This document shows, in pieces, positions 6,043 through 16,330 of a stretch of 16,330 nt of DNA. Below the pieces are notes generated by a model. It did not search any database. It was not told the origin of the DNA and was given only the letters and a program-made list of their open reading frames with translations. The position numbers and the translations under genes were made by a program. Source of the stretch: a virus (Duplodnaviria; Heunggongvirae; Uroviricota; Caudoviricetes); IMG/VR virus record IMGVR_UViG_2684622620_000010, positions 1 to 16,330 of that record, one strand, 5' to 3'. The number at the start of each line of letters is the position of its first letter. The stretch's first letter is position 1.

Positions 6043-8265
6043 ATGACCATTTTTAACGGCTTGTTAGAAGCGAAAAAAGGCGCGCTCAAAAACGGCGCGA
6101 TCCCGGCGCTGGCCATCGCCATCGACGCCCCTAACAAAAAAGTTGCCGAGAACATCATCATCGGCAAATTGTGGGAAGCCTACCCTGACCACGGCGACAA
6201 CTATTTCAAACCTAAAATCTGGGAAGATGCCCCGGGCCAACCGCGCCCAGGCGTTGGTGAGTTTGATGAGACGTTCGCCACAGAACACAGTTTTGATGGC
6301 GAAAAATGGGTAGTTAACACCCCCGTTGTAGATAGCGGTTCAGCAGATATCGCACAGGTTAACGACCTGATGAAACTGCCGGCTCGTGAACGATTCGCCG
6401 CCGTTCTGCTGTTCAGCCACGACGCCAACGAAGTCAACAGTGAATTGCTTGCGCAGACGCGTGAATACCTGGAGATGCTCGACAACAGTGATACTGACAG
6501 TGAGGATGAGGTTGACGCGTTTAACCGCATCGTTCTTGATGCCATGGTGGCGTGTAAGCCCATCGAGTACATGCATATTGCTGGATTGAATAATCTGGTA
6601 CATGCAATTTTGGCAAGTTGCGATACCCAGGAACAAAACCCGACCAGTTGGACTATCTCCAAATTTATAAAAAAATGGGTAGAGAATCCCGGTAAACGCG
6701 ATGAAATGCTGCCGGAGGTAAAACCAGAAACAGCATCCGCACGTCCTTACAAACAGACTCACGCTACACTGGATCGTGAAATTGCCTGCGCTCTGTTACC
6801 CGTTGGCCCGGAAAAAATCACCCCCAGCGTCCTGAAAGCGGCAGACGAAATAATCAGCCAGGATCGGGAGGATTTTAAACGCTGGTCAATGGCCTTGCGC
6901 ACAACGGATCAGATCCTTTCCTATGACCGGGCATCCGTATTCGGTGTCGTTCAGAGTGCCCCCGCAAAAGACACGTACCATTTCCCGCAATCCCTGCGCA
7001 GTCACATCGACAACTGGCTGCAAGCTAACGGGCAGCGTGATGCAAATGCTGTTGAAGAGAAGCCAAAGGACGCAGCACCAAAGGGTGATGTAAAAGTCAC
7101 CAACCACGGCGGCGGGCGATTCTCAATCGATGGGATGATGTCAGAACCCCCCTCAAATCAGGGCGAAAAAAGCGAAGCAGCAAATGCTGGAGAGCGTAGT
7201 TTGCAGCAGTTGCGTGAGCAGTTTGTCACGCCCCGCCATGTGTATGGCGTACCAGAAAATAACGCCGTATCACAGCGGGAATCTGTAACTGTTATCCTGG
7301 AAGAAGAGACTCCTCCACAAGAAAAACTTAGCGAGCAGGTAAAAGACCTGGTGCAGAACGTTGACGCTCTGGTTGAGCGGATCCATACCGAGGAAAAAAC
7401 TGCATCAATTCGCATGGAGCATTATCTGTCAGCAATGAATGATGACCAGAGCAAAGCAAATTTGGCTATCTGGAATCGCGTTCAGCGGACCGATCCTGCG
7501 TATGTCACACATAATGATTACGGTGCAGGACTGCACTCCATACGCGCACAATATATTTTGATGCGTGCGACTGAAGTGCTGGGAATGGAAGGCATTGGTT
7601 GGGGAGTTGAAATCAAGGAGGAGCGAGTGGATCGCGGTGTGCCATTACTTGAACCTATACAGGATCAGACAGGGAAAATTATTGGACAAAAACCTGTCAG
7701 GGATGCTGACGGCTCCCTGTTCTGCCTGTCAGTACACACCATCCGGATAGATCTCTGGTACGTCTGGAACGGAGTGAAAGGATTTATTCCGTCATATGGC
7801 CACACGGATTACATATCAAAAAATAACAAAGGGGCACTGGTAATGGAAAAAGAGGCCTCCAAAAAGTCTCTTACTGATGCCACCGTCAAAGCACTATCTC
7901 ATCTGGGATTTGCGGCAGATGTTTATATGGATATGCATAACGATAGTGCCTACACCGCCGAGCTGAATACAGAATACGGTATTAAGAAGGCAAGCGAGAA
8001 AGCAGAGGATGCTACCCGACTGCGTGAAGAACTGGATGAACGACTCTCAGGTGTTGCCAAAACACTGGCTGCAGCCGTAACCCCCAATGAAGTTAATAAA
8101 GTCTATGGCCTTATTGCGCGGGAAGTAGAAGTTCACCGCAAAGCCGCAGAATCCAAAGGTGATAAGGAGTATTCAACTTATCTTGGTTCGCGCCTGCGCC
8201 GTTTGAATGAAATCAAAACCGAACGCCTCGCCGCTCTCGCCGCCGCACAGGAGCAAACAGCATGA
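6043..8265 (+). CDS. Large recombination protein with a C-terminal Rad52/Erf-superfamily annealing domain and an unassigned N-terminal half
   Basis: 740-aa ORF. Residues about 585-625 (YISKNNKGALVMEKEASKKSLTDATVKALSHLGFAAD) resemble the Rad52 N-domain signature ([29 protein letters not shown]). Residues about 335-460 look like a low-complexity linker; the first ~330 aa match nothing I recognise. Start has SD GAGGAAAGACC then ATG. Confidence 0.6.
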   Translation: MTIFNGLLEAKKGALKNGAIPALAIAIDAPNKKVAENIIIGKLWEAYPDHGDNYFKPKIWEDAPGQPRPGVGEFDETFATEHSFDGEKWVVNTPVVDSGSADIAQVNDLMKLPARERFAAVLLFSHDANEVNSELLAQTREYLEMLDNSDTDSEDEVDAFNRIVLDAMVACKPIEYMHIAGLNNLVHAILASCDTQEQNPTSWTISKFIKKWVENPGKRDEMLPEVKPETASARPYKQTHATLDREIACALLPVGPEKITPSVLKAADEIISQDREDFKRWSMALRTTDQILSYDRASVFGVVQSAPAKDTYHFPQSLRSHIDNWLQANGQRDANAVEEKPKDAAPKGDVKVTNHGGGRFSIDGMMSEPPSNQGEKSEAANAGERSLQQLREQFVTPRHVYGVPENNAVSQRESVTVILEEETPPQEKLSEQVKDLVQNVDALVERIHTEEKTASIRMEHYLSAMNDDQSKANLAIWNRVQRTDPAYVTHNDYGAGLHSIRAQYILMRATEVLGMEGIGWGVEIKEERVDRGVPLLEPIQDQTGKIIGQKPVRDADGSLFCLSVHTIRIDLWYVWNGVKGFIPSYGHTDYISKNNKGALVMEKEASKKSLTDATVKALSHLGFAADVYMDMHNDSAYTAELNTEYGIKKASEKAEDATRLREELDERLSGVAKTLAAAVTPNEVNKVYGLIAREVEVHRKAAESKGDKEYSTYLGSRLRRLNEIKTERLAALAAAQEQTA

Positions 8266-8831
8266 GCACCGCTATCGCTATTGCAAAAGAATACGCCAGC
8301 CTGATTGACCTGCTGGAAACCTCCGACGAACTGACGCCAGAGATGATCGCCGACACACTTGAAGGTATGGAAGGAGAACTGGGAGACAAACTGGACGCCA
8401 TGATGGTCATCTGCCGCAATTTACAGGGCAATGCCAGTACCTGCGCTGAAGAAATGTCTCGCCTGGCTACCCGTAAGACGTCCTTTGAAGGCAAGGAAAA
8501 AGCAATTCGGAAGCATATGCTCGCCTGCCTGCAAGCTGCTGGCCTGGATAAACTAAAAACCGCAAAAAACACATTTACTGATGCACAGGGGGCTATCCGG
8601 GTAATTATCGATAGCAAAGATAAGATCCCGGATGAGTATGAAGGCGTGTCACTTGTTGATGTAGAAACGGTTATTACACCAAACAAGCGAGCCATTAAAG
8701 AAGTGATTGAATCTGCGGAGGCGGTTGCCGCCGAAATACTGGCGCGTGGAGAAACACCACCAGCCGAGTTATTAAACCCGGTACCAGGCGCACATCTGGA
8801 ACGCGGCGAACGTTCGCTGAGGGTACGCTAA
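8262..8831 (+). CDS. Siphovirus Gp157-like protein (recombination-module accessory protein)
   Basis: 189-aa acidic coiled-coil protein (EMIADTLEGMEGELGDKLDAMMVICRNL...) resembling the Gp157 family that often follows Erf/Sak genes. ATGA overlap with the upstream gene. Confidence 0.55.
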   Translation: MSTAIAIAKEYASLIDLLETSDELTPEMIADTLEGMEGELGDKLDAMMVICRNLQGNASTCAEEMSRLATRKTSFEGKEKAIRKHMLACLQAAGLDKLKTAKNTFTDAQGAIRVIIDSKDKIPDEYEGVSLVDVETVITPNKRAIKEVIESAEAVAAEILARGETPPAELLNPVPGAHLERGERSLRVR

Positions 8832-9013
8832 TGCTTAAACTCACATTAAAGCGTGGTGACGCGGTTCACCTGGTACTTGCCGATGGTACCAATGGCATTA
8901 TTGAAGCACGGAGTCGCTGCGAACTTGGGCTACACCTGCCAGAAAACATTAAGGTCACGCGGGAGAAATCGGCATTCCCCCCACCAGAACTGATTACGCC
9001 TAATCAGAAATAA
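8831..9013 (+). CDS. CsrA-like small protein (60 aa)
   Basis: An ungapped alignment with E. coli CsrA (61 aa) keeps M1-L2-x-L4-T5, G9, G33-x3-P37 and V42-x-R44-E45, plus conservative hydrophobic matches. Start overlaps the upstream stop (TAATG). Confidence 0.45.
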   Translation: MLKLTLKRGDAVHLVLADGTNGIIEARSRCELGLHLPENIKVTREKSAFPPPELITPNQK

Positions 9014-9062
9014 AAACTCACCATCGCTAGCATTGCGATTCACCAGTAACAGGAGGATCACA

Positions 9063-9257
9063 ATGCTGCGATGGCAACCGGGAGCAACTCTGCTCTCCGC
9101 ATTTGATATCAAAATTGGCCGACTGTCGGCCAGCGTCAGGAAACAGGCCTTGACCGAGTCTGATATTGCCCGTGCCTGCCATGTGGCAGATGACGCAATA
9201 AGCTACATAATGAGGAAAGACCATGAACGATCTGTTAAACGACGAGGAACTGGTTGA
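9063..9257 (+). CDS. Hypothetical small protein (64 aa)
   Basis: ATG at 9063 preceded by AGGAGG with 6-nt spacing; the ORF-track start at 9033 is a TTG. Overlaps the excisionase start by 35 nt in another frame. Confidence 0.4.
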   Translation: MLRWQPGATLLSAFDIKIGRLSASVRKQALTESDIARACHVADDAISYIMRKDHERSVKRRGTG

Positions 9258-9438
9258 ACTGACCGGCTACCAGTTCCCGTCAAAACAATGCGGCGCCCTG
9301 ACCCGTGCCGGGATCTCTTATGTAAAACGCCGCGATGGGCGACCTCGCGTCACATGGACGCATGTAAACGCTGCGCTGTCCGGAGCAAGGTCCGTGCAGA
9401 TTGCCGAAGAAGAACAACCAAATTTTGATGCAATCTGA
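9223..9438 (+). CDS. Excisionase-like protein (DUF4224-type Xis)
   Basis: 71-aa ORF directly upstream of, and TGATG-overlapping, the integrase gene, with the motif ELTGYQFPSKQCGALTRAGISYVKRRDGRPRVTWTHV typical of small phage excisionases. Confidence 0.6.
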   Translation: MNDLLNDEELVELTGYQFPSKQCGALTRAGISYVKRRDGRPRVTWTHVNAALSGARSVQIAEEEQPNFDAI

Positions 9439-10466
9439 TGAGCAGAACACGAAAAAGCGCGGAAGATAATAAGCTGCCACCCCGCGTTTATAAAAACAAA
9501 TACAGCTATTATTTCAAACCAACGCCCCGAGAGTGTATTACGCTGGGTAAAATTAATGATCTGTCAATTGCTCAGGTATGGGTGAAATACGAAGAGATCC
9601 TGAATGATGCTATTGATGTCATGACGTTCAGTAAACTCTGGAACAAATTTCTCAACAGCACCTACTATCTGGAACTCGGTCAGCGTACACAAAAGGATTA
9701 TCTGCAGCACCAGAAGAAATTACTCGCCGCGTTCGGGAAAATGAAAGCCGACAACATAAAACCTGCTCACGTGCGGCTGTATATGGACAAGCGGGGGCTG
9801 AAAAGCAAAACACAGGCGAACCATGAAAAAGCCAGTATGTCGCGAGTATTCCGCTGGGGATACGAACGCGGATACGTAAAAGGGAATCCATGCCAGGGCG
9901 TCAGTAAATTTTCCCTCAAGCCCCGCGACTACTATTTCACGGACGAGGAATATATCGCAATTTATCAGGAGGCATCTCCCGTTTTACAGTGCGCGATGGA
10001 GATCGCCTATCTGTGCGCCACGCGGATCGGCGATATACGAAAGCTGACGTGGGATCAGGTTATGAGTAAGGGTTTGTTTATCCAACAGGGTAAGACTGGC
10101 AAAAAGCAGATCAAACAGTATTCAGAGCGACTGACGTTCGCACTTGAGCAGGCGAAATCGTTGGGAGGACAACATTTCGTGGTCTGTAACAAATATGGCG
10201 GGCAATACAGTTATACCGGATTTAACGATATCTGGCGTAAAGCCAGGGCGGCGGCAAGTGAAAAGCTGGGCTACCCGATTACGGGAACGTTTCACGATTT
10301 AAAAGCGAAGGGGATCTCAGACTACGACGGAAGCAGTAAAGAAAAGCAGTTGTTCTCTGGTCACAAAACTGAGGCGCAGGTGCTGACGTATGATCGCAAA
10401 CCTGCAGTTTCTCCGACTCTGGATATTCCGGTGCTGGATGTCACAGTTCTGAGCAGAAACCCGTGA
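9438..10466 (+). CDS. Tyrosine integrase (lambda Int family)
   Basis: 342-aa ORF with the C-terminal catalytic region TFHDLKAKGISDY...SGHKTEAQVLTYDRK, aligning to lambda Int TFHELRSLSARLY...GHKSDTMASQYRD (from memory). Adjacent to the tRNA-Ser 3' end. Confidence 0.85.
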   Translation: MSRTRKSAEDNKLPPRVYKNKYSYYFKPTPRECITLGKINDLSIAQVWVKYEEILNDAIDVMTFSKLWNKFLNSTYYLELGQRTQKDYLQHQKKLLAAFGKMKADNIKPAHVRLYMDKRGLKSKTQANHEKASMSRVFRWGYERGYVKGNPCQGVSKFSLKPRDYYFTDEEYIAIYQEASPVLQCAMEIAYLCATRIGDIRKLTWDQVMSKGLFIQQGKTGKKQIKQYSERLTFALEQAKSLGGQHFVVCNKYGGQYSYTGFNDIWRKARAAASEKLGYPITGTFHDLKAKGISDYDGSSKEKQLFSGHKTEAQVLTYDRKPAVSPTLDIPVLDVTVLSRNP

Positions 10467-10473
10467 CGGTCTA

Positions 10474-10507
10474 ATTCTAAGTGAATATTCTAAGTCCGTT
10501 CTAACAG
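10474..10507. repeat. Direct repeats ATTCTAAGT / ATTCTAAGT / TTCTAACAG (candidate integrase arm-type sites)
   Basis: Three copies starting at 10474, 10487 and 10499 (12-13 bp spacing) between the int stop and the tRNA-Ser 3' end. Confidence 0.4.
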
Positions 10508-10551
10508 GGGGATCGACGGTGAAAAGTGAGTGACGTAAGTCATTGATAAAG

Positions 10552-10641
10552 TGGCGGAGAGAGGGGGATTTGAACCCCCGGTAGAGTTGCCCCTACTCCG
10601 GTTTTCGAGACCGGTCCGTTCAGCCGCTCCGGCATCTCTCC
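10552..10641 (-). tRNA. serU: tRNA-Ser (anticodon CGA)
   Basis: Reverse complement reads GGAGAGATGCCGGAGCGGCTGAACGGACCGGTCTCGAAAACCGG...GGGGGTTCAAATCCCCCTCTCTCCGCCA: 7-bp acceptor stem, anticodon loop CTCGAAA, long variable arm, T-loop GTTCAAATC, encoded CCA. Confidence 0.9.
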
Positions 10642-10734
10642 GTTCAGATGGTTGCCATGATGCCAGGAAATTTGGCATTTTAACAGTCCCTGTCCGTGCA
10701 ATTTTGTTCAAGTGACGAGTTTGCGAGCAAAACG

Positions 10735-11532
10735 ATGATTAAGTGGCCCTGGAAAGTACAAGAATCAGCACATCAAACTGCCCTTCCCTGGCAGGAAGCA
10801 CTATCGATCCCCCTTTTAACGTGTCTGACGGAACAGGAACAAAGCAAATTAGTCACTCTTGCCGAACGTTTTTTACAGCAAAAGCGGCTTGTTCCTTTAC
10901 AGGGCTTTGAACTGGATTCATTAAGAAGCTGCCGGATAGCACTTCTATTTTGCCTACCCGTTCTGGAGTTAGGACTGGAATGGCTGGATGGTTTTCATGA
11001 AGTCTTAATTTATCCTGCGCCATTTGTGGTCGATGATGAATGGGAAGACGATATCGGTCTGGTGCATAACCAACGTATTGTTCAGTCAGGTCAGAGCTGG
11101 CAGCAAGGGCCTATCGTTTTGAACTGGTTGGATATACAAGATTCTTTTGATGCTTCTGGTTTTAACCTGATTATTCATGAAGTCGCTCATAAGCTGGACA
11201 CCCGTAACGGCGATCGCGCCAGCGGAGTTCCCTTTATTCCGTTGCGTGAGGTTGCTGGCTGGGAACACGATCTTCATGCTGCAATGAACAACATTCAGGA
11301 AGAAATCGAATTGGTTGGCGAGAATGCGGCGAGCATTGATGCTTATGCTGCCAGTGATCCTGCTGAATGTTTTGCCGTACTTTCTGAATATTTCTTTAGC
11401 GCCCCAGAACTTTTTGCTCCTCGTTTCCCTTCATTGTGGCAACGTTTCTGCCAATTTTATCAACAAGATCCTTTGCAGAGACTGCATCGCACTAATGATA
11501 CAGACTCGTTTTCGGCGACGAATGTTCATTAA
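10735..11532 (+). CDS. mtfA: MtfA-like zinc-dependent peptidase (Mlc titration factor A)
   Basis: Begins [14 protein letters not shown]..., has the HEVAHKLD (HExxH) motif and the C-terminal region of MtfA/YeeI. The ORF-track start at 10696 is a GTG and is rejected. Confidence 0.8.
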
Positions 11533-11585
11533 TTAACAACTTTGCAGATTAATTAACCAATTGAAATGACTTATGAAATTTAGTA

Positions 11586-11614
11586 TTGACAGACAAGGTA
11601 CCGCTAAGTAATAT
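11586..11614 (+). promoter_or_regulatory. Sigma70 promoter of the tRNA-Asn gene
   Basis: TTGACA (11586-11591), 17-bp spacer, TAATAT (11609-11614), followed by a GC-rich discriminator TCGCCCC; the tRNA starts about 19 nt downstream. Confidence 0.55.
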
Positions 11615-11632
11615 TCGCCCCGTTCACACGAT

Positions 11633-11708
11633 TCCTCTGTAGTTCAGTCGGTAGAACGGCGGACTGTTAATCCGTATGTCACTGGTTCGAGTCCAGTCAG
11701 AGGAGCCA
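11633..11708 (+). tRNA. tRNA-Asn (anticodon GUU)
   Basis: TCCTCTGTAGTTCAGTCGGTAGAACGGCGGACTGTTAATCCGTATGTCACTGGTTCGAGTCCAGTCAGAGGAGCCA: 76 nt, anticodon loop CTGTTAA, T-loop GGTTCGAGTCC, encoded CCA. Which of the identical asn tRNA gene copies this is cannot be told from the sequence. Confidence 0.92.
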
Positions 11709-11796
11709 AATTCTAAAAATTCGCTTCTTAGCGCAATGTCACTAACCTTAGTTGAACATTGTTTATTAACGGATAGCGGGTTTTTAACATCTTAAG

Positions 11797-11830
11797 CGCC
11801 CTCGACCTTTATGGTTGAGGGCGTTTTGCT
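11797..11830 (+). terminator. Rho-independent terminator downstream of tRNA-Asn
   Basis: CGCCCTCGACC-TTTAT-GGTTGAGGGCG stem-loop (11 bp with one G-U pair) followed by TTTTGCT. Confidence 0.6.
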
Positions 11831-12020
11831 ATGAACGCCATCACCATTTTCCCCTCGATTATAAAACTTGAGTTATTCAGTAGTCTCCCCTCTTGCAACT
11901 CACACCCAAAACTGCCTAACGAAAAGTTATTAATTTTCAATCATATTGCTATCAGGATTTACATTTTTTCGCTGTGCTAGAAAGGGCGCATGTATGTTAG
12001 CTCGTTCAGGGAAGGTAAGC

Positions 12021-15020
<3,000 letters not shown>

Positions 15021-15074
15021 TGAACCGCCCCGGAAATCCTGGAGACTAAACTCCCTGAGAAAGAGGTAAACAGG

Positions 15075-15401
15075 ATGACTAAAAATACTCGTTTTTCCCC
15101 CGAAGTCCGTCAGCGGGCGATTCGTATGGTTCTGGAAAGTCAGGATGAATATGACTCACAGTGGGCGGCAATTTGTTCCATTGCCCCAAAGATTGGCTGT
15201 ACGCCGGAGACTCTGCGTGTCTGGGTTCGCCAGCATGAGCGGGATACCGGGGGCGGTGATGGTGGGCTCACCAGCGCTGAACGTCAGCGTCTGAAAGAGC
15301 TGGAACGTGAAAATCGTGAACTGCGCCGCAGTAACGATATCCTTCGCCAGGCTTCCGCTTATTTTGCGAAGGCGGAGTTCGACCGCCTCTGGAAAAAATG
15401 A
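15075..15401 (+). CDS. IS3-family transposase OrfA (copy B)
   Basis: Identical 108-aa translation to 55-381. Confidence 0.9.
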
Positions 15402-16288
15402 TGCCACTGCTGGATAAGCTGCGTGAGCAGTACGGGGTCGGACCGGTATGCAGCGAACTGCATATTGCCCCGTCAACGTATTACCATTGTCAGCAACAGC
15501 GACATCATCCGGATAAACGCAGTGCCCGTGCGCAGCACGACGACTGGCTGAAGAGAGAGATACAGCGCGTATACGATGAAAATCATCAGGTGTACGGTGT
15601 GCGTAAAGTCTGGCGTCAGTTGTTACGGGAAGGAATCAGGGTGGCCAGATGTACAGTGGCACGTCTCATGGCGGTTATGGGACTTGCCGGTGTTCTCCGG
15701 GGTAAAAAGGTCCGTACGACCATCAGCCGGAAAGCCGTTGCCGCAGGCGACCGCGTAAACCGTCAGTTCGTGGCAGAACGACCTGACCAGCTGTGGGTGG
15801 CTGATTTTACTTACGTCAGCACATGGCAGGGCTTCGTCTATGTGGCGTTTATCATTGATGTGTTTGCCGGATACATCGTGGGGTGGCGGGTCTCATCGTC
15901 TATGGAAACGACATTCGTGCTGGATGCGCTGGAGCAGGCGTTGTGGGCCCGTCGTCCGTCTGGCACCATCCATCACAGCGATAAAGGCTCTCAGTATGTG
16001 TCACTGGCCTATACGGAGCGACTAAAAGAAGCCGGATTACTGGCATCAACAGGGAGTACAGGCGACTCGTATGACAACGCGATGGCTGAGAGCATCAATG
16101 GTCTTTACAAAGCGGAGGTAATACACCGTAAGAGCTGGAAAAACCGTGCAGAAGTGGAACTGGCCACACTAACGTGGGTGGACTGGTATAACAATCGACG
16201 ATTGCTGGGAAGGCTGGGCCATACTCCTCCGGCAGAAGCAGAAAAAGCTTATTATGCTTCCATCGGAAACGATGATCTGGCAGCCTGA
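15398..16288 (+). CDS. IS3-family transposase OrfB (copy B)
   Basis: Identical 296-aa translation to 378-1268. Confidence 0.9.
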
Positions 16289-16330
16289 GTTCACAGATAA
16301 AACACTCTCCAGGAAACCCGGGGCGGTTCA

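Follow-up and report, generated by a model that had tools for sequence, protein, structure and literature searches.

Lysine at the second catalytic arginine position of a lambda-Int-like prophage integrase at serU is an ordinary family variant

Across the tyrosine recombinases of RefSeq, the second catalytic arginine position (Arg-II) is occupied by Arg in 99.1% of cases and by Lys in 0.5% (Gibb et al., PMC2943603). In regard to the consequences of such an exchange, the same Arg-II to Lys change has been studied in Cre (R292K), Flp (R308K) and vaccinia TopIB (R223K), where Lys supports cleavage and recombination. [quoted passage not shown] Lys at this position is also found in natural integrases. 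In the Integrase-On-Demand study, the Lys-type Pseudomonas integrase Pal_Y-Int_1 produced integration in 18.7% of the P. putida cells that received the plasmid and matched Arg-type integrases in the same assay, while the other natural Lys-type integrase tested, Pal_Y-Int_2, failed (PMC12884075). For phage ST64B, whose integrase likewise has Lys at Arg-II, excision has been quantified by attP qPCR (PMC12455584), and excision is also reported in Alonso 2005, as cited in PMC7380047. The re-integration of ST64B has been credited in part to a second, chromosomal integrase, IntA (PMC12455584), so the evidence from this phage is cleanest for excision and not for integration.

The window, i.e. the whole stretch of 16,330 nucleotides analysed here, contains an intact integrase gene (Table 1), and its product combines the PF00589 profile, Arg-I, the catalytic Lys, His-II, His/Trp-III, the Tyr nucleophile and the fold of a tyrosine recombinase. 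The basic residue expected at Arg-II, three positions after His-II, is present as Lys289, a minority state in comparison with the canonical Arg. In Pfam, PF00589 (Phage_integrase) matched the protein with 41.8 bits against a cut-off of 27.1 and PF14659 (N-terminal SAM-like domain) with 23.0 against 22.6, and PF22022 (central domain), at 24.2 bits, remained under its cut-off of 27. The protein also matched PHROG 1 'integrase' (1.5e-51), and a RefSeq cluster of E. coli proteins with 112 members is 100% identical to it, while NCBIfam gave no family match for either int or xis. An AlphaFold2 model built from a 47-sequence alignment (mean pLDDT 87) is laid out as N-terminal beta strands, corresponding to the arm-type domain, followed by a helical core-binding domain and a catalytic domain. 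Compared with the PDB by Foldseek, full-length lambda Int (1z1b) ranked at the top, with an E-value of 2e-16 and TM scores of 0.65-0.77, the upper value stemming from the constructs of lambda Int that cover residues 75-356, and Tn1549 Int, XerA, IntI, XerH and Cre ranked below.

Table 1. Positions of the described features within the window; counts refer to the 120 nearest cluster representatives.
Feature	Coordinates	Strand	Description
IS3-family element, IS1203/IS629-like	1..1310	+	interrupts the DnaB-like helicase gene of the prophage
Excisionase-like gene, DUF4224, 71 aa	9223..9438	+	PF13986 1.5e-16; PHROG 1266 excisionase 2.4e-30
Integrase gene	9438..10466	+	intact 342-aa ORF; lambda-Int-like three-domain tyrosine integrase
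Arg196 codon, Arg-I	10023..10025	+	lambda R212; kept in 120/120 homologues
Lys219 codon, catalytic Lys	10092..10094	+	lambda K235; QGKTG vs QSKTG, beta-hairpin; 120/120
His286 codon, His-II	10293..10295	+	lambda H308; 120/120
Lys289 codon AAA	10302..10304	+	Arg-II position (from alignments and fold); lambda R311, Cre R292; in frame with the ORF
His309 codon, His-III	10362..10364	+	lambda H333, GHK in both; 119/120
Tyr318 codon, nucleophile	10389..10391	+	lambda Y342; 120/120
att core, 77 bp	10536..10612	.	prophage/chromosome junction; 61 nt from the 3' end of serU and 16 nt downstream of it
tRNA-Ser(CGA), serU	10552..10641	-	ARAGORN; tRNA-Ser in E. coli genome annotations; integration target

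Among the described systems, the nearest to the window integrase are those of ST64B Sb28, ZF40, mEp390, Evi, Chris1 and KpF5, with 46-62% full-length identity. Box II of the ST64B-like integrases, F-H-D-L-K-A-K-G, agrees with that of the window integrase, and a small excisionase gene of the same kind is located directly upstream. On the other hand, the best phage record reaches only 62% identity, setting the window integrase apart from this set as a distinct lineage, and, unlike them, it is tied to a different mosaic prophage of the lambdoid/P2-tail-like kind. The integration site of ST64B is presumably serU as well. In the record of vB_EcoM-606R7 (ON470580.1), deposited as a phage 'partial genome', host serU and mtfA adjoin the int gene, and this record is a prophage-plus-flank sequence and not a packaged genome; its integrase, 62% identical to that of the window, represents a second Lys-type lineage at serU. 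Pal_Y-Int_1 resembles the window integrase in its natural Lys at Arg-II and is active in site-specific integration, but it was placed in the BPP-1-arm subgroup (PMC12884075), while the window integrase has no DUF3596 match in Pfam. The DUF3596 (PF12167) arm-binding domain defines the IntBPP-1 subgroup (Smyshlyaev 2021; definition from PMC8138268), and as this domain is absent from the window integrase at E<=0.01 in Pfam, membership of that subgroup was rejected. Finally, in contrast to the engineered Cre, Flp and TopIB mutants, Lys in the window integrase is an evolved native state in what may be a co-adapted sequence background.

Of the solved structures, lambda Int is the best match in both sequence and fold (1z1b, 1z1g, 5j0n, 1p7d, 1ae9). 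Both enzymes have three domains, the R-K-H-x-H-Y positions, a xis-int operon and the same tRNA/att logic, but they are only 20-22% identical, and the window integrase differs from lambda Int by Lys in place of R311, by a Cys where lambda Int has Thr, three residues ahead of Arg-I, and by targeting serU and not attB(gal-bio). One alternative explanation of the unusual residue is a misalignment: Lys289 would not correspond to lambda R311, and another basic residue, such as K291 or R320, would fill the Arg-II site. Such an explanation can point to the invariance of both K291 and R320 in the clade, and to the PF00589 match, whose envelope ends with residue 288, one position short of the Lys. As Lys289 lies outside of that envelope, its column was placed by HMMER against the PDB and by MAFFT. 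With all PDB sequences searched by HMMER, only chains of lambda Int were significant, and in the alignments with its structures (1z1b, 1z1g, 5j0n, 1z19, 1p7d and 1ae9) the query segment 'tgtFHDLKakg' is paired with lambda 'pptFHELRsls' at the maximal posterior probability ('*'). Three independent MAFFT alignments put Lys289 in the R311 column again, and in the AlphaFold2 model the helix of residues 286-295 starts at His286 and includes Lys289. Against a shift in register also stand the exact H-x-x-[R/K] spacing from His-II and the G-H-K and Tyr landmarks downstream, which align unambiguously. Furthermore, the Arg-type relatives in the same alignment read F-H-D-[LI]-R-A-K, with Arg exactly in the Lys289 column and the Lys at +2 retained, so K291 is not a replacement for the missing Arg. 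We regard misalignment as very unlikely, and the assignment of Lys289 to the Arg-II position is confirmed at the level of sequence alignments and of the agreement between predicted and known folds.

The residue had first been pointed out in a sequence-only reading, which located a lysine, encoded by AAA at 10302-10304, in a box II reading TFHDLK, named R311 as the lambda counterpart and proposed a multiple alignment with lambda-type integrases as a check. The position of the codon is exact and in frame as residue 289, the lambda numbering (R212/K235/H308/R311/H333/Y342) agrees with Table 1 in Gibb et al. 2010 (PMC2943603), and the HMMER and MAFFT alignments bear out the positional homology of Lys289 and R311. 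Only the range given for the whole TFHDLK motif, 10290-10307, has to be corrected three bases leftward, to 10287-10304, where ACG TTT CAC GAT TTA AAA encodes T-F-H-D-L-K. Two interpretations were offered there, a substitution that inactivates the enzyme and so fixes a decaying prophage at its site, and a tolerated variant of the family, and these can be separated by the distribution of Lys among the relatives.

According to the first, a point mutation from AGA to AAA would have exchanged Arg for Lys, inactivated the integrase of a decaying prophage and left the element frozen at serU. In favour of this scenario, Arg predominates so strongly among tyrosine recombinases (99.1%; PMC2943603), AAA is, as had been stated, a single transition away from AGA, and the prophage in the window is indeed damaged by an IS element. 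However, aligned by MAFFT together with lambda Int, all of the 120 nearest cluster representatives (54-100% identity), these being the best representatives of 90%-identity clusters from Enterobacterales and relatives, have Lys in the R311 column, and their other catalytic residues are kept just as well (Table 1). Lys is likewise found at Arg-II in eight phage records, ST64B, ZF40, mEp390, vB_EcoM-606R7, Chris1, Evi, KpF5 and Fostie, several of which are prophage-derived sequences and not proven lysogenising isolates, vB_EcoM-606R7 being one example. The integrases of these eight records contain zero stop codons and keep all six catalytic residues, and those of ST64B, ZF40 and mEp390 (46-55% identity) read TFHDLKAKG. 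Arg at this position was found neither in the 120 nearest representatives, nor in the loci of Lys-type phages or of close relatives that were read.

Beyond the close relatives, in species-representative genomes, Lys is kept in Symbiopectobacterium, Gilliamella, Aeromonas, Pseudaeromonas, Enterovibrio and Microbulbifer (34-64% identity), and the Lys-bearing relatives from Aeromonas, Gilliamella and Microbulbifer are only 34-47% identical to the window protein. At the level of DNA, a scan of genome contigs for homologues gave 15 loci, in which the Lys codon is AAA in some relatives and AAG in others. Judged from these loci, the variation is the trace of selection that holds the amino acid while the codon drifts. 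The nearest Arg-type relative read as DNA is Pseudomonas phage F10, whose integrase (29% identity) has FRDIRPKA in this region and CGC as its Arg codon. With AAA or AAG for Lys in the relatives and CGC for Arg in F10, nothing indicates a recent change from AGA to AAA.

For the wider surroundings of the family, 1.84 billion 50%-identity representatives were searched with HMMER, and 3817 relatives were retrieved. Among the 122 full-length proteins within the best 150 of these, 73 have Lys and 46 have Arg in the Arg-II column. On a neighbour-joining tree rooted on lambda Int, Fitch parsimony put Arg at the root and counted only approximately three K/R changes. Within one sequence neighbourhood, at least three switches took place. 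The window protein, with TFHDLKAKG, FSGHK and TYD, fits the motif of the Lys-type clade, F-H-D-[LI]-K-A-K followed by S-G-H and Y-[DN], a motif that recurs in 120/120 of the near homologues and, among the 73 Lys-type representatives, in most. Two of the 50%-identity representatives, P0206 and P0208, have Asn or Gly at Arg-II and lack other catalytic residues too. By their sequences, these are probably decayed copies, in contrast to the intact protein of the window, and in them several catalytic residues are missing together.

In addition, the remainder of the window ORF is intact and identical to copies residing in full prophages with perfect att repeats. With Lys in every one of the nearest homologues, in the eight phage records, in relatives down to 34% identity with both codons and in 73/122 of the wider set, and with Arg missing from all close relatives, the inactivating point mutation is exceedingly improbable, and the notion of a substitution that locks the prophage falls away. 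The other interpretation, a tolerated family variant, holds up: Lys is clade-wide, and ST64B, with the same FHDLKAKG box, is competent for excision. It had been argued that functional orthologs routinely carrying Lys would speak against a lesion, and ST64B, the excision of which has been measured (PMC12455584; also Alonso 2005, as cited in PMC7380047), is such an ortholog. On this comparative evidence, Lys at Arg-II is to be read as the inherited, conserved native state of a large clade of ST64B Sb28-like integrases. We hold with high confidence that Lys is a native and functional equivalent of Arg-II, and by analogy with the active members of the family we infer that the copy in the window would be catalytically competent.

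Standard tyrosine-recombinase chemistry would then most likely apply. Tyr318 would attack the scissile phosphate, Arg196 and Lys289 would balance the charge on the non-bridging oxygens in the transition state, Lys219 would act as the general acid, and His286 and His309 would assist. The DUF4224 excisionase encoded upstream would set the directionality, and integrase and excisionase together would recombine a core of 77 bp overlapping serU at its 3' end.

It is also conceivable that the Lys-type clade is attenuated on purpose, with slower ligation or longer-lived covalent intermediates altering the directionality or the regulation of integration and excision. By analogy with the ligation defect of Cre R292K, which piles up the covalent intermediate (PMC2943603), Lys-type enzymes could be slower, and Lys does covary with residues close to the active site, namely Cys193, Ile/Val293 and Ser307. 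The residue three positions before Arg-I (Cys193, codon 10014-10016) is Cys in 66/73 Lys-type and Thr in 44/47 Arg-type representatives, and Ile/Val293, at +4 from Lys289, and Ser307, at -2 from His-III, also track the Lys type among the 50%-identity representatives. However, the 293/307 pair corresponds to another mode of packing that Gibb et al. had described for Arg-type enzymes (PMC2943603), Pal_Y-Int_1 equalled the Arg-type integrases in efficiency when assayed alongside them (PMC12884075), and the covariation counts are confounded by shared ancestry. Purposeful attenuation is accordingly improbable in our estimation, and Lys as a native, functional residue of the clade remains the preferred reading. 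As the counts are confounded in this way, the covarying positions represent leads that may reflect either co-adaptation or common descent. The more specific proposal that the ST64B-like clade is a stable natural solution for Lys at Arg-II, reached through co-adapted residues with Cys193 as the clearest candidate, is tentative and seems to us rather doubtful.

In its surroundings, the integrase gene forms part of an int/xis/att module. The stop codon of the excisionase-like gene overlaps the ATG of int, an arrangement of xis and int that is also seen in ST64B, ZF40, mEp390 and F10, and both traits of the Lys-type clade, the small excisionase gene directly in front of int and a tRNA gene whose 3' end serves for integration, are present at this locus. 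Beyond the integrase gene follow serU, mtfA, asnT and yeeJ. In E. coli APEC20/16, a 100% identical integrase is part of a prophage of approximately 46 kb at serU that holds replication, Q, lysis, terminase, capsid and contractile-tail genes, and an exact copy of the 77-bp att sequence is found at the far end of this prophage, between a tail-fibre gene and yodB. At 77 bp, the repeat is unusually long for a core. The integrase is present in only 22/5426 complete E. coli genomes, the others having an empty serU site, and element-free genomes match the window only from 10536 onward. Such a distribution, together with the empty sites, fits acquisition by site-specific integration. In regard to the state of the APEC20/16 prophage, its cro-like regulator (L001 20643-20874; approximately 3953-4210 in the window), located opposite an HTH repressor, is frameshifted according to RefSeq, and the portal gene is marked as frameshifted as well, so even this 'intact' prophage may be defective for lytic growth.

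The picture of a decaying prophage, from which the locking of the element had been derived, was therefore correct in one part: the prophage is damaged, an IS element cutting its helicase gene at about 1310, but this damage has no link to residue 289. The element has terminal inverted repeats of 25 nt (1-25 and 1286-1310), two transposase ORFs (108 and 296 aa) in which HTH_Tnp_1 and rve domains were recognised, and 99.6-99.8% identity to annotated IS1203-family copies. The interrupted helicase gene is reduced to an ORF of 260 aa, in comparison with a gene of 1392 bp in APEC20/16. The real lesion of the window prophage is this insertion into the replication helicase gene, independent of integrase residue 289. 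A second, identical and directly oriented 1310-bp copy of the IS is located at 15021-16330, where it truncates yeeJ. The ends of the window coincide with the outer ends of the two copies in a layout resembling a composite transposon, with the end of the prophage, serU, mtfA, asnT and the 5' part of yeeJ in between. Among the complete E. coli genomes of the collection, none matches the window beyond 1311-15025 in one place.

Two further features of the prophage part were observed. Within the replication-initiator (O-like) gene (2087..3187, minus strand), two tandem units of 45 nt, 78% identical to each other, occupy 2714-2803, each with TTGGGTCA...TTGACC half-sites, and by their sequence these units look like origin iterons. 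The 740-aa ORF at 6043-8265 has no Pfam match, but PHROG 2489 'exonuclease' matches it over the full length (bit score 1062.8), and its relatives are annotated as hypothetical or exonuclease-family proteins.

If Cys193 and Lys289 were truly compensatory, their pairing would explain the partial tolerance of the R-to-K change in Cre, Flp and TopIB, and would show how Lys-type active sites could be engineered for a shifted balance between cleavage and ligation. Irrespective of that, Lys at Arg-II belongs to the ordinary variation of the family, has already been recorded in the literature, and is not a mutation that cripples the enzyme. A missing canonical Arg-II, or another departure from R-H-R-Y, is consequently no proof of a pseudogene or a 'locked prophage' unless the clade has been checked. 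Automated screens that drop integrases without Arg-II would lose many phage integrases of enterobacteria and other gammaproteobacteria, as the Lys type makes up 73/122 of the nearest 50%-identity clusters. For the locus in the window, since Lys is native to the clade, int, xis and att probably still make up a competent module, in a prophage that the IS insertion has disabled elsewhere.
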